A DNA stretch of 64,000 nt from an uncultured delta proteobacterium (GTDB lineage Bacteria > Desulfobacterota > Zymogenia > Zymogenales > Zymogenaceae), in assembly GCA_963792965.1 (NCBI GenBank), contig CAWBYW010000007.1, forward strand, positions 96,001 through 160,000. Reading direction: 5' to 3'. Of the stretch, positions 2,787-57,335 are shown one piece after another; within the stretch, counting starts at the first letter, position 1; each line of letters opens with the position of its first letter. Below the pieces are notes generated by a model that made no database searches, had not been told where the DNA came from, and worked only from the letters and a program-made list of their open reading frames with translations. A program made the position numbers and the translations under genes.

Positions 2787-3105
2787 GGGAACCTCGGGCA
2801 AATGATATTTAATCTTTTTAGAATATCATATATTCGGCATGTTCGTCAAGGAATGTGAGATTTGGGGAAAAGTTACCGGCGATTAGACGATGAACGGTTG
2901 GATTAATATAGGGTATTACCGGAAAGGGCACCGTACAAAAGGAAAATTGATACCCGGTTGCCGGGAGTAAGAGTTATAGGTGCGGACGCCCCGCCCACTG
3001 GGGCTGATCCTTTTTTCGCGTGACCCGACGAGGAAACAGAGAAGTGGTTTCGGACTGCCGCCACACTAACGGAGAGGCGGCCCATCAAGTATTTAGTCGT
3101 AATCC

Positions 3106-3134
3106 TTGACAAATCAGCACCCGCAGGGTAATCT
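3106..3134 (+). promoter_or_regulatory. Sigma70-type promoter for first MFS gene
   Basis: TTGACA-17 bp-TAATCT, about 30 bp upstream of the ATG at 3166. Confidence 0.55.
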
Positions 3135-3165
3135 GCAATTTCTTTATTATTCTTTGTGGATTCAT

Positions 3166-4581
3166 ATGAAAAAGAGACTCGAAAGGTTCCCCCTCTGGGG
3201 ACAGGTCCTGTATTCGAGCGGGGCCCTCGGGTGGACCATGGCCGACCGTATCTGGGTCACGTTCATGGTCTATTTTTATCTCCCGCCCAAGGAATCCGGC
3301 ATGCCGGAGCTGATCAACAATGTGACGTTCTGGGGGGTGCTGACGGTCGCGGGGCTTGCGCACATCTTCGGCCGCAGCATAGACGCGATCTCCAACCCGC
3401 TCGTCGCCTCCTGGAGCGACCGCAGCAGATCAAAAATGGGCAGGCGCAAGAAGTTCCTCATCTGGGGTGGGCTCCCGTTGATGCTGGCGACCGCGCTGCT
3501 CTTCTTCCCCCCCTCAATGGGGGCGACCGCGCTCAACGGCGTCTATATGGCCGTCATGCTCGGGTGCCTCCTCTTCTTTTTTACCTTCTACGTCGCCCCA
3601 TGGCTTGCCCTTATCCCGGAGCTTTCCCATACCGACCGGGAAAGGATGAACATCGTCACGATCCAGGCGATCTTCACGCTGGCGGCTTCGGTGATCGTTA
3701 TGGTCGGCGGGTACGTCCTTTGGGGGGCGCTTGAGGGAACGGGCATTGAGAAGGGGAGGGCGCTGCAGCTTGCCGTCGTCATCATGGCGGCCTTCGGCCT
3801 CATCTTCTGCTATCTGGCCGTGATTCCCATCGACGAAAAGCGCTACTGCGCCTCGGTGCCCTCAGAGATGGGAATGATCGAGTCGATGAAGCTCACGCTC
3901 TCCAACCGGGCGTTTTTGCCCTATCTCTTTGGAGCGATTTGCCTGACCTTCGGCATAAATATTGTCTCCCAGGCGGCCACCTACTACGTCACGGTCATCC
4001 TTCGAAGGGAGGAGGCCTTCGCGGGTACGCTCTTTGCCGTTATCTTCGGCGTTGCCCTCGTTGCTTTCTTTCTCATCAACCTGCTCACCCGTTACGTGCT
4101 CAAGAAGACCGTGATGATGATCTCGCTGGGCATCTTCGGGGTTTGCGCCTGTCTCCTTTATTGGATGGGGACCGACGCGATCCCCTTTCCCCCGGTCGTC
4201 CAGGCGTTTTGCATCCTCGGCCTGATCGGGATTCCGGTCGCGGCCGTAATGATCCTTCCCAACGCCATGATCTCAGATGTCGCCCAGTACGACGCGATAA
4301 GGACCGGCACTAACCGGGAGGCGATGTACTTCGGCGTCCAGGGGATCTTCGAGAAGATCAACCTCGGCATCTCGTCGGTGACGCTTGTCTTTCTGCTGTC
4401 CACCTTCGGCAAGGATATCGCACGTCCCCTCGGTATCAAGATATCCGGGCCGGTGACCGGGGTAGTCGCGCTGGTCGGCATCATCATCTTTATCTTCTAT
4501 CCCGAAAGAAAGATCATGGAGCTCCTCGACCGACACCGTATGGAGGCCGGAGAGGGGGTTGCGGCGGAAAAAATCCGTTGA
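3166..4581 (+). CDS. MFS transporter, glycoside-pentoside-hexuronide (MelB-like) family, paralog 1
   Basis: About 12 hydrophobic segments; DAISNPLVASWSDRSRSKMGRRK, ALIPELS..DRER and SDVAQYDAIRTGTNREAMYFG motifs. Start placed at MKKRLERF by comparison with the paralog. Confidence 0.9.
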   Translation: MKKRLERFPLWGQVLYSSGALGWTMADRIWVTFMVYFYLPPKESGMPELINNVTFWGVLTVAGLAHIFGRSIDAISNPLVASWSDRSRSKMGRRKKFLIWGGLPLMLATALLFFPPSMGATALNGVYMAVMLGCLLFFFTFYVAPWLALIPELSHTDRERMNIVTIQAIFTLAASVIVMVGGYVLWGALEGTGIEKGRALQLAVVIMAAFGLIFCYLAVIPIDEKRYCASVPSEMGMIESMKLTLSNRAFLPYLFGAICLTFGINIVSQAATYYVTVILRREEAFAGTLFAVIFGVALVAFFLINLLTRYVLKKTVMMISLGIFGVCACLLYWMGTDAIPFPPVVQAFCILGLIGIPVAAVMILPNAMISDVAQYDAIRTGTNREAMYFGVQGIFEKINLGISSVTLVFLLSTFGKDIARPLGIKISGPVTGVVALVGIIIFIFYPERKIMELLDRHRMEAGEGVAAEKIR

Positions 4582-30951: not shown

Positions 30952-30981
30952 GCCGCAGACAGGATCTGCGGCTTTTTTTTT
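30952..30981 (+). terminator. Intrinsic terminator of the CoA-transferase/BKACE operon
   Basis: GCCGCAGA-CAGGA-TCTGCGGC followed by T9. Confidence 0.85.
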
Positions 30982-48253: not shown

Positions 48254-49611
48254 ATGAGCCAACTCAAACGGGTGGTGAAGCTCAGGACGGTGGTAGCCAC
48301 GAGCGCCGGCATGGCAATGGCAACCTCCTGTTATACGGCCGGGGTCAAGGTTGCCATGTTGGTCGCGGGCAACTCCGCGTGGATATCCATCGCCGTCGCG
48401 GGTTTCATGTGCATCCTGTCGGCCATGTGCTTTTCAGAGCTCAACGGGATGTACCCGTCCGCCGCGGGCATTCGGCTCTTCATCGAGCGAGCCTTCGGCG
48501 AGAAGGCGGCCATCTCTATCGGGGCCTTCTACCTCGGCTGCGCAATCGCGATGGTGGGGCCGGAAACGCACATCCTCAGCAGTGTCATCGGCACGATCGC
48601 TCCGGGCGTTCATCCTTTCGTGTGGGTAGTGGTCTTTTTGGGCTTGATCGCCCTCATCAATCTGAGGGGGGTCAAGGTCGCCGGGTGGGCCGAGGATATC
48701 ATGACCTATGTCATGCTCACCTTCATGGTATTCGTGGGCATCTACGCGATCGGTAAGTTCGGGGTTTCATCCAAAGAGCTCTTCAACACCGGCGGGGTGA
48801 CCAACGTCTTTCAGGCGGCGGCGGTCGGCGTATTCCTCTTCGTCGGATTCGAGTGGGTGACACCGCTGGCGGAGGAAGTGCTTGACAGCAAGATGATCGC
48901 CAAAGGGATGATGTGGGCCATCGGGCTGTTATGCCTCACCTACGTCTTGTTCATTACGGGGATGACCGCCGTGGTCCCCAAGGAGACACTTGCGGTGTCG
49001 GCAATCCCGCACATCATCGTGGGGAACGCCCTGTTCGGGAAGGCCGGCATCTATATGTTCGTCGTGATGAGCTGCCTGGCCTCGCTGACCTCGTACAACG
49101 CGGGATTTTTGAATTTTTCGCGCTTCATGTACGCCATGGGACGGGATAACGTGCTGCCGCGGATATTCTCACGCATCAGCGACCGGTACGCCACGCCGTG
49201 GTTTGCGGTCCTCTTTGCTTTTCAGTGTCGCTTCTGATATCGCTCTACATCCACCTCACGGGTAAATACATGACACTGATTATGGTGGCGGCGGCTATTG
49301 AGGTTATTATCTATACGGTGATGGCGCTGTCGGTGATAAAGCTCCGTTTCTCGCTCAAAGACGCCCGAAGACCCTATCGGGTCCCAGGCGGGTTGGTTAT
49401 CCCGATCGTTGCGATCGTCTTTTTCCTGATACTGCTGGTGGGCATCTATTCGGAAGATATTACGGTCCTGTTCATCATGGCCGGGGTTTTTATCGTTTGC
49501 CTCCTCTATACCCTTGTGGTGCCCCCGCGCCTGAGGGCCGCCTATGAAAAAAGGATGTCCGAGCGGGTTCCGCGGAGAAGGAGACCGGGAGGGCCGGAGT
49601 CGGGAAAATAG
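48254..49611 (+). CDS. APC family amino acid/amine permease, paralog 2, frameshifted near 49220
   Basis: FSELNGMYPSAAG, FVGFEWVTPLAEE, SRFMYAMGRD, TPWFA; continues as SVSLLISL...LRFSLKDARRPYRVPGG...ERVPRRRR. Confidence 0.9.
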
Positions 49612-49644: not shown

Positions 49645-50743
49645 ATGAAAATCGGAGTTCCTAAGGAGATAAAGGCCGAGGAGAATCGGGTGGCGATCAC
49701 CCCCGCGGGCGTATCCGCGCTGACCAGCCACGGCCATACGGTCTTCGTGGAAAAAGGGGCCGGCCTCGGCAGCGGGATAACGGACCAGGAATATATTGCC
49801 GCGGGGGCTCAGAGCCTTCCGACGAAGGAGGACGTTTGGAAACAGGCCGAGATGATCATCAAGGTAAAGGAGCCGCTCGGCCCGGAATTTGACCTGATCC
49901 GGGACCATATCCTCTTCACCTATTTCCACCTGGCGGCGGATATCGAGCTGACCAAAAAACTTCTGGCGACCAATGTTAAGGCCGTCGCCTACGAAACGAT
50001 CCAGCTTGCCGACGGGTCGCTGCCGCTGCTGGCCCCGATGAGTGAGGTCGCGGGACGGCTCTCGATCCAAATGGGCGCGCGCTGTCTCGAGTCGATCGGG
50101 GGAGGGAAGGGGATCCTCCTGTCGGGTGTCTCGGGAGTGCCGCCGGCAAAGGTGGTGGTCCTCGGTGCCGGGATCGCCGGCTCCAACGCCTGTTACGTGG
50201 CCGTGGGCATGGGGGCGAGGGTAAGCATCCTGGATATCAATCCCGCAAAGCTGCGCTACATCCACGACGTCATGGGAGGCCACGTCGTGACCGTCATGTC
50301 GAACCTCGCCAATATCGAAGAAGAGGTATTGTCGGCCGACCTCGTCGTCGGGACGATCCTCATTCCCGGCGCAAAGGCCACAAAGCTGGTCACTCGGGAG
50401 ATGATAAAGAAGATGAAGAGAGGCTCGGCCATCGTGGACATCTCGGTGGACCAGGGCGGGTGCGTGGAGACCACTCACCCGACGACGCATAAAGATCCGA
50501 CGTATATCGTCGACGGCGTTGTCCACTACGCGGTGGCAAACATGCCGGGGGCGGTTCCGCGCACCTCGACCTTTGCGCTGACAAACTCGACGCTCTCCTA
50601 TGCCCTCGATATCGCCAATAAGGGACTGGACCGCGCAATTGCGCGAGAGCCCGTCCTTGAAGAAAGGGGTCAATATCCTGAATAAGAAACTGACGTACAA
50701 GGCGGTCGCCGAGGCCTTCAACATGAGCTGGGTGGAGATTTAG
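49645..50743 (+). CDS. ald: Alanine dehydrogenase, frameshifted near 50650
   Basis: [50 protein letters not shown]; continues in the +1 frame as [21 protein letters not shown] to TAG at 50743. Confidence 0.96.
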
Positions 50744-50813: not shown

Positions 50814-51758
50814 ATGATGCTCAACGCGGCGGCCAAGATAAAAGGGATCCTTGACGAATACGTAATCGGACACAACGATATCAAGGAGGGAATCCTCCTT
50901 GCTTTGATAGCGCGGGAACACGTCTATATCGAGGGCGCCCCGGGCACGGCAAAGACGATGCTTGCCGAGCTCACCGCCAAGGCCGCCAATCTCAACTTCT
51001 ATTTCTATCAATTCCACCGCGATACGCGGTTGACGGAGCTGATCGGCGACTACATCATCTGCCGCGAGCCGCAGTCGGGAAACGGGGACGCGGAGCTGAT
51101 CAGCCAGCGACTCGTCCCCGGTGGTATCCTTACGGCGCAGCTGGCCGTTCTTGACGACATAACCCGTGCGCCGGGAGAAGCCCTCAATATCCTCCTTCGG
51201 CTTCTCAACGAGCGGGAATATAAAGGGAGCCGCCTCCCGCTGCTCACGGCGATAGCCACCAGTAATCCCACCCAGGATGACTACTACAACGAGCCGCTGG
51301 ATCTGGCTAACCTTGACCGGTTCACGATTCAGCTCCGGTCGTCGGGGCTCATCAACCGGGGCAACTGGGACGAAGCCGTCTCGGTAATGAATTACTACAC
51401 CGACCACACGTTCGACAAGGAGTCGGTCACGGGTTTCGAGAATGCCCTCTTTGCCGATCCGGACCGCTACCTGTTGGATATCACCGTTCCGGCAACGGTC
51501 CGGCAGCGACTCATTGGATTCCTCGAGCATCTGGTTGTCAATTTCCATCTCAACGAGACCAATTCGCTCCTCACCGACCGGACGTTTCTCGTCAAGGCTA
51601 TCCGCATTCTCAAGGCCAAGGCGGTGCTTGAGGGAAGAAAAGAGGTCGTCCCCCAGGACCTTTCCGTCCTCAGCTACCTCACGACGTTCCGGGTCCCTCC
51701 GGAAGTAGGGATGCGCCTGGACGAAATCCTCATGGATCTGGTCGAAAAAAAAAACTAA
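50814..51758 (+). CDS. MoxR/RavA-like AAA+ ATPase (short, unshifted product)
   Basis: Walker A GAPGTAKT, Walker B-like AVLDDI, LNILLRLLNER, ATSN, LDRF, TDR; ends at the A10 run followed by CTAA. Confidence 0.9.
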   Translation: MMLNAAAKIKGILDEYVIGHNDIKEGILLALIAREHVYIEGAPGTAKTMLAELTAKAANLNFYFYQFHRDTRLTELIGDYIICREPQSGNGDAELISQRLVPGGILTAQLAVLDDITRAPGEALNILLRLLNEREYKGSRLPLLTAIATSNPTQDDYYNEPLDLANLDRFTIQLRSSGLINRGNWDEAVSVMNYYTDHTFDKESVTGFENALFADPDRYLLDITVPATVRQRLIGFLEHLVVNFHLNETNSLLTDRTFLVKAIRILKAKAVLEGRKEVVPQDLSVLSYLTTFRVPPEVGMRLDEILMDLVEKKN

Positions 51759-52699
51759 ATACGCCCGAGTTCCAAGAGCGTGAGGAACAACCCCAGCCGC
51801 AGGAAGTAGAGGAAGGCGCGGCCGAGCCGTCCGAGCTTTCCGACAAAGACTTCGAGCAATTCCCCGATAAGTCCTTCGTCGTAAAAGACCTGCTTCCCAC
51901 TCGGGAAAAGACCGACGATAACGTCGTCGACAGGGGCGAGGATGAAGTCAATAAGGAAACGCTCAGCGACGTCCGGCCGATACTCAAGGTCATCGAAGGC
52001 AATATCGTTCAAAAGACCGAAGACCTCATGAAGGATTCCGGCGGCTCGCCGCGAAGCTGGTCGCGCCTTGAGGATTTCTCCCACTTTGACGACGTGGACC
52101 CGGTCGACTCGACGGTGTGGCTTTCTCACCTCAATCCGAAAATGCCGATGGCGCTCCTCCGCAAGCGAAAGCTCAAGGGCGGAGCACTGGCTATCGTGCG
52201 CGATATCAGCTCTTCCATGACCGGGAGCCGCGCTCAGTGGTCTTCCATGCTGATCCTTGGGCTTGTCCGTATCGCGCGAAAGAGACGGATGCGGCTTGGC
52301 TATCTCGAGTTCAATCACCAATCGACAAAATTCCTGAGGAACAGGACTTTCTTCAACCGTTCGTATACCCGTATCGGCGATATTGCATCGCGATGTCGAT
52401 GCAGCGGGTTCACCAACTACCAACTCCCGCTTCTGGACGCCATCAAGGAGTTCAAAGACGTGTCCGACAGGATAAAGCACGTCGTGTTTATTACTGACGG
52501 AAGACCCACGGAAGGGGACCGGGAGATCAGCCGCGAGATAAAGATCGCCCAGAAGGATGGAATAGCGGTCCATTCTATCTATATCGGGAAGAAGGAATCC
52601 CCGGAGATCCTCAGGACGCTGTCGAAGAAGACGGGAGGGGCCCATTTTCAGGTAGGGCCGGATGAGAACGGGAGTCTGAAGCTGAAAACATTGACATAA
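51746..52699 (+). CDS. Acidic linker + vWA (MIDAS) domain, in the -1 frame from the A10 run of the AAA+ gene
   Basis: The -1 frame is open from the A10: KKKLNTPEFQEREEQPQPQEVEEG...; vWA motifs RDISSSM, GFTNY, FITDG. No start codon before 52028. Confidence 0.85.
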   Translation, partial: KKKLNTPEFQEREEQPQPQEVEEGAAEPSELSDKDFEQFPDKSFVVKDLLPTREKTDDNVVDRGEDEVNKETLSDVRPILKVIEGNIVQKTEDLMKDSGGSPRSWSRLEDFSHFDDVDPVDSTVWLSHLNPKMPMALLRKRKLKGGALAIVRDISSSMTGSRAQWSSMLILGLVRIARKRRMRLGYLEFNHQSTKFLRNRTFFNRSYTRIGDIASRCRCSGFTNYQLPLLDAIKEFKDVSDRIKHVVFITDGRPTEGDREISREIKIAQKDGIAVHSIYIGKKESPEILRTLSKKTGGAHFQVGPDENGSLKLKTLT

Positions 52700-52728: not shown

Positions 52729-52740
52729 TGAGGTTTGCCG

Positions 52741-53883
52741 ATGACACACGACGAGATTCTCAAGGAAATGAAGGCGGTGGCCCAAGACCCCGTCGCTGCG
52801 GCTCGGAAATTCAAGCAGAAATATAACAGGCCGGTCTTCGGTTACTTCTGCACCTACACCCCCGAGGAGATCATTCACGCCGCGGGGGGCATTCCGTTCA
52901 GGATCATCGGACAGAAGAAGGGCGTCGTCTGTTCCGATGCCCACCTCCAGAGCTATTCCTGCTCGCTGGTGAGAACAGGGCTCGATATGGCGCTGACAAA
53001 ACAGCTTGATTTTCTGGAGGGGGCCGTTTTCCCGCATACGTGCGATTCCATACAGCGTCTCTCCGACATCTGGCGAATAAACACGGACTACTCGTTTCAC
53101 GCCGATATCGTGCTGCCCGTTAAACTTCAGACCGAAAGTGCGAGAACCTACCTGATCGAAGAGCTCACGTCCTTTCTCAAGAAACTGGAGGCGTATACAA
53201 AGCATGAGATCAGCGTGCCCTCGCTCAACGAAGCCATCGGGCTCTATAACACCATGAGGACCAACCTCACGCGACTTTACGCGGCCAAGCAAGAGAATCC
53301 CGAAATAATTCATTCCAGCGCCGTCAACGACTGCGTCCAGGCCGCCATGTTCATGCCCGTGGAAGAACACAACTCTCTCATGGGCGAGCTGCTCTCGCTC
53401 ATCGGGAAGAAGAACACCAGCGCACGGCCGACCAGGATATTTCTTGTCGGAAACCTGTGCGTCTTCGACGAGATATACGACTATATCGAGGCGGCAGGGG
53501 GGACCGTCGTCGGCGACGACATGTGCACGGGCTCGCGCTATTTTGCCCTTAACGCCGACGGTAAATCGTCAAAGCCGATCCAGGCCCTTGCGGATCGGAT
53601 CATCAACCGGCCGATATGCGCCGCAAAACACAATCCCCTGCTTGACCGCGGGGTCTACCTGAAAGGGATAGTGCAGGATAGCGGGGCGCAGGGGGTCATC
53701 TTTCTGATGCTTAAATTCTGTGATCCGCACTCCTACGACTATCCGTACCTGAAGGAGTCGATGGACGAATTGAAGGTGCCCCATATGCTGCTCGAGACGG
53801 AGATGGACAATCCCTCACTCGGGCAGATCAAGACCCGTATTGAAGCGTTCATGGAGATGATAGGAGACAGCCGTGGCAGATGA
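52741..53883 (+). CDS. 2-hydroxyacyl-CoA dehydratase family subunit (HgdB/HadC/BcrC-like)
   Basis: GYFCTYTPEEIIHAAG, CSLVR, PHTCD, DDMCTGSRY, KFCDP, TRIEAF. Confidence 0.9.
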   Translation: MTHDEILKEMKAVAQDPVAAARKFKQKYNRPVFGYFCTYTPEEIIHAAGGIPFRIIGQKKGVVCSDAHLQSYSCSLVRTGLDMALTKQLDFLEGAVFPHTCDSIQRLSDIWRINTDYSFHADIVLPVKLQTESARTYLIEELTSFLKKLEAYTKHEISVPSLNEAIGLYNTMRTNLTRLYAAKQENPEIIHSSAVNDCVQAAMFMPVEEHNSLMGELLSLIGKKNTSARPTRIFLVGNLCVFDEIYDYIEAAGGTVVGDDMCTGSRYFALNADGKSSKPIQALADRIINRPICAAKHNPLLDRGVYLKGIVQDSGAQGVIFLMLKFCDPHSYDYPYLKESMDELKVPHMLLETEMDNPSLGQIKTRIEAFMEMIGDSRGR

Positions 53884-55114
53884 AAAGATAAGAGATCCTG
53901 AAAAGGAAAAGAAGAAGTTTCGTTCGGCTAAGGCCATGAGAGAGCTGATGACGCGCTACTACACCGAGTCCAAGATCGCGGAGAGTAGCGGCAACAAGAA
54001 GATCGCCTGGATCACCTCGGGCGGGCCGGTGGAAGTGTTGCACGCCATGGACGTCATCCCTATCTACCCGGAGAACCACGGGGCGATGCTCGGGGCGTCC
54101 AAGATGAGCGTGGAGATGTGCGGCGTCGCCGAGGACATGGGGTACTCCCGTGACCTCTGCTCGTACTTCCGCGGAGATATCGGGAGCGCCGTGACCAAGA
54201 AGAGCCCGATCCCCGGCGGGTTGCCGAAGCCCGATTTCGTCATCGCGTGTAATAACATCTGCGGCACCGTCACGAAGTGGTACGAGGTGCTGGCGCGCTT
54301 CTTTAACGTCCCGATGTTTCTCATAGACACGCCGTTCATCCATCAGCACAAATCGGAAGCCGGTCTGCGATACGTGAAGGCCCAGATGGAGGAGTACATT
54401 CGATTCCTGGAAGAGCAGTGCGGAAGGTCCATGGACAGGGACCGCCTCAAGGAAGTCGGCAAGCTCTCGGTGGAAGGGGTTCGGCTCTGGAATGAAGTGC
54501 TCTCTACCTGCGAGCACAGGCCCGCACCGATGAGCTGTTTTGACGCATTCTTCTTCATCGCCCCGATCGTGACGCTCAGGGGTACGCAGGAGTGCAACGA
54601 TTTCTACGTCGGCCTCCTGGCCGAGCTGAAGCAGAGGATAGCGGATGGGGTGGCGGCGGTCGATAACGAAAAGTATCGTCTCCTCTGGGACAATATACCG
54701 GTCTGGTTTGCGCTTAGGCCCCTCTCGGAGCTTTTTGCGTCAAGTCAGGCGTGTCTCGTCGCCGATACCTACACCAACGCCTGGACCAGGGCGTGCCTCG
54801 ATCCGGATAACCTCATCGAGACGATGTCCCGCTCGTACACCGAGGTTTATCTCAACATCGACATCGAGCTGATGGTCGCCGAGATAGAGGCCCTCATTAA
54901 ACGCTACTCGGCCGACGGCTTTGTCATTCACTCAAATCGCTCGTGCAAACCCTATTCCCTGGGTCAGCTGGACATCGCGCGAATAATTCAGAAAGATCTC
55001 GGGATCCCGACCGTCATCGTCGAGGCGGATATGACCGACGAGCGGTCATACTCCGAGGCGCAGACGAGGACACGCGTCGAGGCTTTCATCGAGAACCTCA
55101 AGCACTCGGCGTGA
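53873..55114 (+). CDS. 2-hydroxyacyl-CoA dehydratase family subunit (HgdA/HadB/BcrB-like)
   Basis: YPENHGA, DLCSY, NNICGTV.KWYE, HSNRSCK, TRVEAF. Confidence 0.9.
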   Translation: MADEKIRDPEKEKKKFRSAKAMRELMTRYYTESKIAESSGNKKIAWITSGGPVEVLHAMDVIPIYPENHGAMLGASKMSVEMCGVAEDMGYSRDLCSYFRGDIGSAVTKKSPIPGGLPKPDFVIACNNICGTVTKWYEVLARFFNVPMFLIDTPFIHQHKSEAGLRYVKAQMEEYIRFLEEQCGRSMDRDRLKEVGKLSVEGVRLWNEVLSTCEHRPAPMSCFDAFFFIAPIVTLRGTQECNDFYVGLLAELKQRIADGVAAVDNEKYRLLWDNIPVWFALRPLSELFASSQACLVADTYTNAWTRACLDPDNLIETMSRSYTEVYLNIDIELMVAEIEALIKRYSADGFVIHSNRSCKPYSLGQLDIARIIQKDLGIPTVIVEADMTDERSYSEAQTRTRVEAFIENLKHSA

Positions 55115-55430: not shown

Positions 55431-57335
55431 GTGGCATCCGGCTACTGGAACAAGATCCTGAGGGTCAACCTCTCCGATAAAACCTACCGTGTCGAAGACC
55501 TCGACGAAGGGTTCATGAGAAAGTATCTGGGGGGGAGAGGGCTCGCCCTCCCCTTTTTCCTGAGGGAGACCGCGCCGGGTCTCGACCCCTTTTCACCAGC
55601 CAATCCGATCATCTTTGCCTGCGGAGCCCTGACGGGGGCCGCAGGACCCGCCATTCCACGCTTTACCGCCGTATCGAAATCACCCCTGACCAATGGGCTC
55701 GGGGCATCGGAGGCCGGGGGATTCTGGGGCCCTGAGTTGAAGAACACGGGGTATGACGCCCTCATTGTAGAGGGGAAGGCGCCCAAACCGGTCTATCTTT
55801 TCGTTAGTGAGGAGCGGGTCGAGTTTCACGATGCGGCCGGAGTGTGGGGAAAGGAGACCGGCCCGGCCCAGGAAGGCATCAGGGGGGAGCTTGGAGACGG
55901 ACGGGCGCGTGTCCTTATCATCGGCCCGGCGGGAGAAAGGCTCGTGCGGTTTGCGGGCATCGGAAACGAGCTTGCCCACTATAACGGTCGAAACGGACTT
56001 GGGGCCGTGATGGGGAGCAAAAACCTCAAGGCGGTGGCTGTCCGCGGCACAAAGAAGCTTCCGATTGCAGACGAGGCGGCGCTCAGAGAGATCGCCCGGG
56101 AGTTCGCGCGAACGTTCAAGGACAATAAACAGGGATGGACGCTCTTTGAATACGGCACCCCCGCTACGGTCGATGCCCTCGTCGGCTTCGGTGCCCTCCC
56201 GTCCAGAAACTGGGAGACAGGGGTATCGGAGAATGACAAGGGCCTCTTCTGCGATCGGTATAACGAGGAGATCCTCGTGTCTCGAAAGGGCTGCTTTGCC
56301 TGTCCGATACGATGCAAGCGCGTGGTGAAAGTCTCGGAGGGGGATCTGGCCGTGAACGGGGACTACGGGGGACCCGAATACGAGACGATCGCGGCCCTCG
56401 GCTCCAATTGCGGTATATACGATCACCGGGTCATCGCCAAGGCCAACGAGTCGGCCGACCGGTTTGGGATGGATACGATCTCGCTCGGCATGACGATCGC
56501 GTTTGCCATGAGATGCTACCGGGAACGTCTCCTGACGAAAGCGGATACGGGCGGGATCGATCTCGAATTCGGGAGCCGTGATGCGCTGCTTTCCGTCATC
56601 GAGATGACGGCTCGGCGGGAGGGAGTAGGGGACCTCATCGCCGAGGGTTCGGTCAGGATGGCGCGCATCGTGGGTAAAGGCTCGGAGCGATTTCTTGTCG
56701 AGACAAAGGGCCAGGAGGTGGCGATGCACGACCCCCGCATCAAAACGGGGGTCGGGATAGGCTACGCCGTCTCCGATATCGGGGCCGATCATATGGTCTC
56801 TCCTCACGACCCGTTCTTCACGGACGAAAAGTCGCCGTCGTTTATCGGCTCCCGTATCCTCGGGATCAAAGAACCATCGGGCCTTTTCGAGATGACGAAC
56901 AACAAGGCGGTTAACTTCGGCATCGCCGCGCGCTACTGGAGGATGCAGGACTGCCTCGGCTGCTGTCACTTCGGGTTTATGCCGCGCGGCCCCATGGAAA
57001 TCGACAAGCTCATTGAGATGATAAACGCGGTCACCGGCTGGAACGTCGGCATGGCGGAGCTCCTCACGGCGGGGGAGCGAGCGATCAGCCTGTCACGGAT
57101 ATATAATCATCGGGAAGGTTTTTCCCGGCAGGATGACCGCCTTCCCGCGAAATACCACGAGAATATGGCAGACGGTCCCTACCAGGGAAAACTCGGCATC
57201 GACGGCAAGAAGTTCGAGGATCTCCTCTGTTCATACTACGAGGAATTCGGGTGGGATCCCGAGACCGGCTACCCAACGCTGGAAAAGATACGCGAACTGG
57301 GTCTCGATGGGTTCACTCCTGGGGCCGGCTCGTAG
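55431..57335 (+). CDS. aor: Tungsten aldehyde:ferredoxin oxidoreductase family protein
   Basis: KYLGGRGL, KSPLT, GRNGLGAVMGSKNLKA, CFACPIRC, GPEYET, GMDTIS, DDRLP. Confidence 0.94.
   Translation: MASGYWNKILRVNLSDKTYRVEDLDEGFMRKYLGGRGLALPFFLRETAPGLDPFSPANPIIFACGALTGAAGPAIPRFTAVSKSPLTNGLGASEAGGFWGPELKNTGYDALIVEGKAPKPVYLFVSEERVEFHDAAGVWGKETGPAQEGIRGELGDGRARVLIIGPAGERLVRFAGIGNELAHYNGRNGLGAVMGSKNLKAVAVRGTKKLPIADEAALREIAREFARTFKDNKQGWTLFEYGTPATVDALVGFGALPSRNWETGVSENDKGLFCDRYNEEILVSRKGCFACPIRCKRVVKVSEGDLAVNGDYGGPEYETIAALGSNCGIYDHRVIAKANESADRFGMDTISLGMTIAFAMRCYRERLLTKADTGGIDLEFGSRDALLSVIEMTARREGVGDLIAEGSVRMARIVGKGSERFLVETKGQEVAMHDPRIKTGVGIGYAVSDIGADHMVSPHDPFFTDEKSPSFIGSRILGIKEPSGLFEMTNNKAVNFGIAARYWRMQDCLGCCHFGFMPRGPMEIDKLIEMINAVTGWNVGMAELLTAGERAISLSRIYNHREGFSRQDDRLPAKYHENMADGPYQGKLGIDGKKFEDLLCSYYEEFGWDPETGYPTLEKIRELGLDGFTPGAGS

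Follow-up and report, generated by a model that had tools for sequence, protein, structure and literature searches.

The 64-kb window analysed here (64,000 nucleotides of contig CAWBYW010000007.1, from an uncultured member of the Zymogenaceae) carries at positions 50814-52699, as judged from its sequence, one gene of a widespread and uncharacterised family in which a MoxR-type AAA+ ATPase is followed by a linker and a von Willebrand factor A (vWA) domain. The two halves of the gene lie in different reading frames that meet at a run of ten adenines (A10), and this run is very probably a programmed recoding site, by which a single gene would yield both a 314-aa ATPase and a 628-aa ATPase-linker-vWA protein. 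A first-pass annotation of this DNA had proposed that an AAA-only and an AAA-linker-vWA product arise by recoding, as in chlD genes. That proposal is supported by the conservation of the arrangement in the taxonomic class of the window, by the presence of the run in 59 of 78 loci across phyla, and by its absence wherever a short paralogue stands beside the fused gene.

The features of the gene all lie on the + strand. The zero-frame open reading frame (ORF1; 50814-51758) encodes the MoxR-type ATPase, assigned by Pfam, whose nearest solved chains are 2r44 and RavA and whose 314 residues end in VEKKN. Its end reads GTC GAA AAA AAA AAC TAA, with the A10 run at 51745-51754, on the boundary between the AAA+ module and the linker, and the stop codon TAA (51756-51758) one codon past the run. 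The continuation in the -1 frame (51755-52699) comprises 314 codons and a stop. An acidic and proline-rich linker comes first and is followed by the conserved block RPILKVIEGNIVQKTEDLMKD (together 51755-52186, as supported by the substitution pattern and by the structure model of a homologue), and then by the vWA domain (52187-52669; Pfam VWA, residues 163-323 of P0002), whose metal-ion-dependent adhesion site (MIDAS) motif DxSxS is read as DISSS at 52202-52216. Within ORF1, the Walker A motif GAPGTAKT was read at 50934-50957 (residues 41-48) and the Walker B motif VLDD at 51147-51158, with an aspartate where MoxR and RavA carry the catalytic glutamate.

The -1 frame is open over 51632-52699, and no ATG, GTG or TTG codon was found in it between 51632 and 52027; the earliest of them, at 52028, is the Met codon contained in RPILKVIEGNIVQKTEDLMKD. 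The addition of one A to the run gives a read-through of 310 residues, EKKK and a further 314 residues, in all 628 aa, which is also the length of many uninterrupted homologues. The run is the longest homopolymer of the window, where 0.02 A10 runs were expected against the one observed, and 2 of 100 shuffles reached that number. The anatomy drawn by the first-pass annotation (the A10 run, the 314-aa ATPase, the linker without a start in the -1 frame, the MIDAS-intact vWA domain and the 628-aa fusion) was thus confirmed in the sequence and by Pfam.

The most immediate question concerning such a break is whether it exists in the organism. The GTDB class, order and family of the window coincide and contain 10 genomes from 5 genera, in assemblies of 5 to 550 contigs. 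A tblastn search recovered one orthologue in each of the 10 genomes, 72-85% identical, and none in the other sampled families of the phylum (31 genomes; best E-value 2.5e-15). The junction lies on one contig in nine loci, that of the window and those of eight relatives, and in all nine the AAA and vWA frames differ, over A10 in eight and A9 in one; the tenth genome (G001) has A10 as well, which brings the class to nine runs of A10 and one of A9. Beyond these genomes, further database clusters of at least 72% identity were short forms in 26 of 26 cases, ending in EKKN, EKKK or KKN or slightly beyond EKKN or EKKK, while no longer form exceeded 61% identity among the 120 listed. The comparison with homologues suggested by the first-pass annotation, which looked for a conserved poly-A run and a frame break at the same position, hence found both kept throughout the class. 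The outcome that would have spoken for a simple gene, namely an in-frame A11 with uninterrupted homologues devoid of a run, was not encountered, as the homologues of at least 72% identity are all interrupted and the uninterrupted, more distant ones keep the run.

In view of this distribution, we give almost no credence to the explanation that the break is an assembly or sequencing error in a gene that is really an in-frame A11 fusion. Homopolymers are indeed prone to errors, uninterrupted homologues of 628 aa are known in the database, and the genome of the window resembles a long-contig assembly (a 722-kb contig is listed). However, an error would have to recur in all ten genomes of the class, whose assemblies are so diverse, and in the 26 additional clusters of short-form proteins, which come from several sources and include no fused form at 72% identity or above. 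An independent 151-nt contig also contains A10. Moreover, the four other homopolymer-associated frame changes examined in the window, at G, C and T runs, did not split any Pfam family, and a T9 run at 30973 lies outside any ORF of at least 150 aa. This quick check therefore gave no support to the caution, raised together with the original proposal, that homopolymer indels are present in this assembly.

A second explanation would accept the break as real and treat the two parts as separate genes or as a decaying one, with the vWA part initiating its own translation or never being made. Annotation pipelines do call two genes here, and the ATG at 52028 could be taken for a start. That codon lies 91 codons past the run, inside the conserved block, and the 91 linker codons that precede it vary as coding sequence does. 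In fact, variable sites at the first, second and third codon positions numbered 54, 36 and 90 in the linker (91 codons) and 97, 67 and 213 in the vWA part (223 codons), so that the linker substitutions, read in the -1 frame, follow the same coding pattern as those of the vWA part. Three of 11 loci have no ATG, GTG or TTG in the first 92 linker codons, and in the remaining loci such codons occur at scattered, non-conserved places. A vWA domain with an intact MIDAS is kept in the whole class, the homologues are fusions, and in the genome of the window neither part was found a second time. Since the -1 frame shows a coding pattern, the vWA domain keeps its MIDAS and no usable start exists, the vWA part appears to be under selection and to be made only by continuing from ORF1; both parts of the gene are under purifying selection, and the downstream part lacks an independent start, as is expected of recoded genes. 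Separate or decaying genes are accordingly a very improbable explanation.

The reading of the run as a recoding site gains further support from its distribution outside the class. Species-representative genomes were scanned and 260 relatives were obtained, and the counts given here cover the best 78 of these 260 loci. A run of A9-A11 was observed at the junction of AAA module and linker in 59 of the 78 (A10 in 44, A9 in 10 and A11 in 5), in taxa that include Zymogenaceae, Dadabacteria/Thermodesulfobacteriota, Entotheonellaceae, Nitrospinota and Poribacteria, among others. Relative to the AAA part, the vWA part lay in the -1 frame in 35 of these 59 loci, in the +1 frame in one and in the AAA frame itself in 23. 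For this last group, each of the two other frames hits a stop 1-26 codons from the run. A simple pattern KK[K/N/S/T] occurs at the junction in 117 of the 120 long database proteins listed, three lacking it. The first A of the run falls on each of the three codon positions (in 36, 12 and 11 loci), no flanking position has one base in more than 39 of the 59 loci, and lysine codons elsewhere in the run-bearing genes are AAA in 48% of cases (1358 AAA, 1480 AAG), against A9-A11 in 59 of 59 single-gene loci. The nucleotide motif is thus kept beyond the needs of the protein.

Some of these loci deserve separate mention. Among Entotheonella-type loci, all with A10, two (L058 and L064) have the -1 arrangement and six (L048, L051, L057, L060, L061 and L063) are in frame, the difference being a single base beside the run (...A10 TAG TGCC... 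against ...A10 G TAG...). As far as these sequences go, this pair shows that the genomic default flips easily. In a metagenome-assembled genome labelled 'uncultured Leptospirales bacterium', a gene 73% identical to that of the window (L037) has A9 and the -1 arrangement and branches with the Zymogenaceae-type genes; its contig may have been binned wrongly, or the gene may have been transferred. L035 (the same as L009, in G008) is alone in combining A9 with a vWA part in the +1 frame, and its contig has a coverage of about 5. It may be an assembly error, or else a real variant that could be rescued by polymerase slippage only.

The loci without a run provide the other half of the argument. In 17 of these 19 loci, a fused AAA-linker-vWA gene is followed directly by a stand-alone AAA paralogue, as in L049, where the fused gene (874-2862; 662 aa, AAA_5 and VWA) precedes a stand-alone gene at 2884-3930. 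Of the other two, L072 ends with its contig before the junction and L076 has no vWA part within 3 kb. The fused copies of the two-gene loci had neither an A run of five or more nor KKK at the junction in 15 of 15 complete cases, whereas a single AAA copy was found within 3 kb on each side in 59 of 59 run-bearing loci. Two-gene lineages thus have no run, and single-gene lineages retain it in either arrangement, which speaks for a need of both products; and the presence of the run in single-gene loci, together with its loss in two-gene loci, suggests that it serves to yield the short and the long product. This two-gene pattern matches the chlI/chlD pattern described in excerpts of PMC9227772.

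A tree of 94 AAA modules, built by a quick method under LG+G4, placed the main clade of stand-alone copies among the run-bearing genes. The frame arrangement changed on at least 5 well-supported branches, or 7 times by a fewest-changes count, and the run was retained throughout. The AAA modules of the fused copies fell on long branches whose placement is unsure, according to a warning of the tool. Two-gene loci (L046, L047, L049, L050, L053, L054, L056, L059, L062, L065, L066, L073, L078, L087 and L103) come from records labelled SAR324, Lambdaproteobacteria and Myxococcota. The AAA modules of their fused copies have much longer branches and an altered Walker A (GEPGCAKT or GPPGxGKS), which recalls the degenerate AAA module of ChlD. 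In L076, the stand-alone AAA gene resembles those of two-gene loci, yet the 3 kb to each side of it contain no fused gene; its partner may sit elsewhere in the genome.

These repeated changes could also be understood as phase variation at the DNA level, in which the length of the run would vary within a population, from A10 to A11, and toggle the vWA fusion in subpopulations. Both the changes of arrangement across the family and the different arrangements of close Entotheonella relatives agree with it. A switching locus should, however, show both states, and all ten species of the class are out of frame. Besides, the retention of the run in genes that are already in frame, and its loss in two-gene lineages, fit a need for both products at once. 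Phase variation is for these reasons regarded as improbable, and programmed recoding is preferred.

The two modules joined at the run were assigned by their family models. ORF1 is a MoxR-class AAA+ protein, with Pfam scores above the curated cut-offs for AAA_5 (67.6 bits; cut-off 22), bpMoxR (67.2; 27), AAA_3 (40.4; 27) and AAA_lid_8 (28.7; 22.8), the last being a RavA-type lid. Its Walker A agrees with the GxxGxxK[ST] consensus, and the pattern in run-bearing genes is G[AP]PGxAKT. Its Walker B does not agree with the hhhhDE of MoxR proteins, since the solved MoxR 2r44 and RavA show DE at the aligned position. An LDD in place of LDE had already been noted as atypical, and it proved to be a trait of the whole family: DD was present in 93 of 94 family rows, and D114 and D115 were invariant in 20 of 20 sequences. 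In the downstream frame, VWA scored 40.3 bits (cut-off 23.8), and the MIDAS residues are DISSS, the T of GFTNY and the D of ITDG; D463, S465, S467, T533 and D561 are invariant across 35 fused homologues. The downstream part is therefore a vWA domain with a MIDAS.

Membership in better known families was considered and rejected. The RavA equivalog model (NCBIfam NF010054) gave 39.7 bits against a cut-off of 681, with 314 aa set against a profile of 498 positions, and ORF1 has neither the LARA domain nor the C-terminal part of the RavA profile. For ChlD/BchD or the cobaltochelatase medium subunit, the match to Mg_chelatase was confined to residues 17-52 and reached 16.2 bits, below the cut-off of 20.3, and TIGR02442, the model of the family, gave 17.2 bits against 779. 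No match to the CobN/ChlH large subunit (PF02514) was found in the genome of the window, which is 88.85% complete, while 5 of 14 control genomes had one. The gene is thus not a chelatase member, because the ChlI-type and cobaltochelatase models remained below threshold and CobN/ChlH was not found.

An AlphaFold2 model was obtained for the uninterrupted homologue P0003, which is 61% identical in the AAA part (alignment of 35 sequences; mean predicted local distance difference test score, pLDDT, 73.5). In this model, the AAA+ module is confident to about residue 317, with its last helix at 301-320; pLDDT falls below 50 over the linker (318-383), and the vWA fold is again confident at 457-626. 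The run accounts for the KK at about residues 311-312, which bears out the original observation that the A10 run falls on the boundary of the AAA domain and, therefore, points to a short product consisting of a complete AAA+ module. The C-termini of the stand-alone AAA paralogues differ from this endpoint by no more than a few residues.

In the mechanism that we propose, transcripts and ribosomes that stay in register would give the 314-aa ATPase, and those that shift would give the 628-aa ATPase-linker-vWA protein. The shift would most likely consist of one extra A inserted by RNA polymerase slipping on the run, and a possible second route would be for the ribosome to shift by -1 on A_AAA_AAA or A_AAA_AAC. 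By analogy with ChlI and ChlD, the two products, whose AAA+ modules are identical, may assemble through these modules into a common ring with a set number of MIDAS arms, so that the run would determine how many plain subunits there are for each one that bears a vWA domain. Regarding efficiency, excerpts of PMC3711429 report that chlD-type genes in E. coli gave 63% shifted product with A11, 40% with A9 and 10% with A7, and A10 should, by analogy, give tens of per cent.

Between the two routes, which would lead to an identical pair of proteins, the sequences lean towards transcriptional slippage, which receives rather more than half of the weight within the recoding reading. It is favoured because every run has at least nine adenines although a heptamer would serve the ribosome, because the runs occur in all codon phases, and because neither a conserved downstream structure nor a regular upstream signal accompanies them. 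In fact, RNAalifold found no conserved pair downstream in 11 related junctions, the 60 nt downstream, when folded one sequence at a time, gave weak structures with little resemblance to one another, and Shine-Dalgarno (SD)-like words (GGAG or GAGG) occurred within 20 nt upstream of the run in only 17 of 59 loci. The zero-frame stop, in addition, lies 1-9 codons past the run and is not always adjacent, and L035 needs a +1 change, although this locus is possibly an error. The window, with its heptamer A_AAA_AAC, accordingly does not show the features of a stimulated -1 shift of the dnaX type.

It is nonetheless possible, if rather unlikely, that the shift is mainly a programmed -1 ribosomal frameshift on A_AAA_AAC (A_AAA_AAG in relatives), aided by the adjacent stop, with slippage as a minor contributor. 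An in-phase A_AAA_AAC, A_AAA_AAG or A_AAA_AAA is present in every run-bearing locus, a stop lies within one codon in the window and in several relatives, and excerpts of PMC5009743 discuss A_AAA_AAR as the place where chelatase genes shift. This route, however, has to contend with the missing stimulators just described, with runs of 9-11 where 7 would suffice, and with a zero-frame stop that is 5-9 codons off in many loci, and it could not rescue the +1 arrangement of L035.

Several points weigh against programmed recoding as set out here, or against parts of it. We infer from sequence the production of both proteins, the route of the shift, the co-assembly and the cellular role. The contigs of four public sequencing runs contributed a single low-depth piece of 151 nt that spans the run, with A10 and no indel, and this is weak support. 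Many of the 59 run-bearing loci are close kin, for example those of the Dadabacteria/Thermodesulfobacteriota group, and are thus not independent; the tree on which changes of arrangement were counted is a quick-method tree with a long-branch warning for the fused copies; and the +1 locus, at its low coverage, may be an error. Since a run of A9 or more always holds an in-phase A_AAA_AAA, codon phase cannot exclude ribosomal frameshifting. Finally, given the Walker B of the family, one may ask if the ATPase has any ATP-hydrolysing activity: with DD in place of DE family-wide, ATP turnover may be slow or may rely on another residue.

RavA-ViaA is a two-gene pairing of a MoxR protein with a vWA protein. 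The family described here resembles it in combining a MoxR-class AAA+ module, including the RavA-type lid AAA_lid_8, with a vWA/MIDAS protein. In contrast to that pair, the vWA domain follows, within a fusion, a complete second-function copy of the same ATPase module, and there is no separate adaptor gene; moreover, the ATPase is not a RavA equivalog, as its score on that model shows, and has DD rather than DE in its Walker B.

Closer parallels exist at the level of gene organization. The statements on which the first-pass annotation relied as established, concerning the recoding of chlD and the behaviour of long A runs, agree with excerpts of PMC3711429 (Antonov et al. 2013), the review PMC5009743 and PMC9227772 (Kuznetsov, Milenkin and Antonov 2022). 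According to these excerpts, frameshifted chlD likewise combines AAA+, an acidic linker and vWA in one gene, shifts at a poly-A site (A_AAA_AAR, A7-A11) where the AAA+ module ends, and has two products, one short and I-like, the other long and D-like, whose counterparts in our family are deduced from sequence; uninterrupted fusions occur in other species, and a separate small-subunit gene is found where the signal is absent. The differences are that the AAA+ module here is MoxR-class (AAA_5, bpMoxR, AAA_lid_8) and not ChlI-class, that the search for CobN/ChlH in the 88.85% complete genome of the window found none, and that the taxa are Zymogenia, Dadabacteria/Thermodesulfobacteriota, Entotheonellaceae, Nitrospinota and others.

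The tau and gamma products of dnaX offer a second comparison. Excerpts of PMC3711429 describe, in E. coli, a -1 shift at A_AAA_AAG with an SD-like sequence and a hairpin as stimulators and, in Thermus thermophilus, slippage on A9. Like the products proposed here, those of dnaX share an AAA+ N-terminal part and differ in their C-terminal domains, the site is poly-A, and two gene layouts are found, one whose default product is long and one whose default product is short. The protein function is unrelated, and no SD-like or hairpin stimulators are conserved in the MoxR-vWA family, whose runs of 9-11 are like those of the Thermus case and unlike the E. coli heptamer. A poly-A run is also the site of transcriptional frameshifting in tssM from Citrobacter rodentium, where two length variants result (excerpts of PMC4256274); the intragenic run and the two variants made through RNA polymerase slippage, the likelier route in our case, are shared features. 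There, by the title of that paper, the shift rescues a prematurely interrupted gene in one species, whereas the site described here is conserved across phyla.

The genes around the MoxR-vWA gene had suggested clients for the putative chaperone. Two tandem genes of the 2-hydroxyglutaryl-CoA dehydratase D-component family (HGD-D; 52735-55114) follow on the same strand about 40 nt past it, and an aldehyde:ferredoxin oxidoreductase (AOR) gene (55431-57335), also on the same strand, follows these; an alanine dehydrogenase gene (49645-50685) lies upstream. HGD-D genes follow the MoxR-vWA gene in only 6 loci, all in the class of the window. In other lineages, the neighbours include YceG, an amino-acid kinase with a PUA domain, IMPDH and others, often on the opposite strand, and no neighbouring gene was shared across lineages. 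The proposal that the adjacent Fe-S dehydratase of the 2-hydroxyacyl-CoA dehydratase type and the AOR are clients is therefore unsupported, since this neighbourhood is kept within the class only. Further upstream, an amino-acid permease ORF (48254-49237; 327 aa) covers profile positions 10-331 of 427 and is possibly truncated, and the ORF that comes after it (49198-49611) is in a different frame and has no Pfam match.

Recoding of this kind is already established for chlD and dnaX; what is described here is its probable use in an uncharacterised MoxR-vWA family. No paper on recoding in this family was found in a literature search that left the 146 recoding clusters of PMC3711429 uncovered, and the family may be among them; priority in print elsewhere cannot be excluded. 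On a broader proposal our judgement is evenly divided: the family may represent an undescribed two-subunit AAA+ machine, similar to ChlI/ChlD and lacking a CobN/ChlH partner, spread over many mostly uncultured phyla. Its subunit ratio would be set by efficient polymerase slippage on A9-A11, in the range of tens of per cent; its genomic default would have flipped at least five times without harm; and in at least one lineage the dual coding would have been resolved by gene duplication, with subsequent loss of the run. More boldly still, nucleotide pools or the growth state might influence how often slipping occurs, in which case the ratio would be regulated rather than fixed.

If programmed recoding holds, this would be a second, independent AAA+-vWA family in the small set of cellular genes from which slipping on poly-A produces two subunits of one machine, and one with an unusually clean natural control, as single-gene lineages keep the run in either frame and two-gene lineages have lost it. 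Annotation pipelines turn the gene into two entries, a 'MoxR ATPase' and an orphan 'VWA protein' that has no start codon, and the long product is therefore absent from protein databases for whole clades. The family would also be a compact system in which transcriptional slippage and ribosomal frameshifting may be compared on A9, A10 and A11, and it would allow one to study the action of a MoxR ring whose number of MIDAS arms can be tuned.

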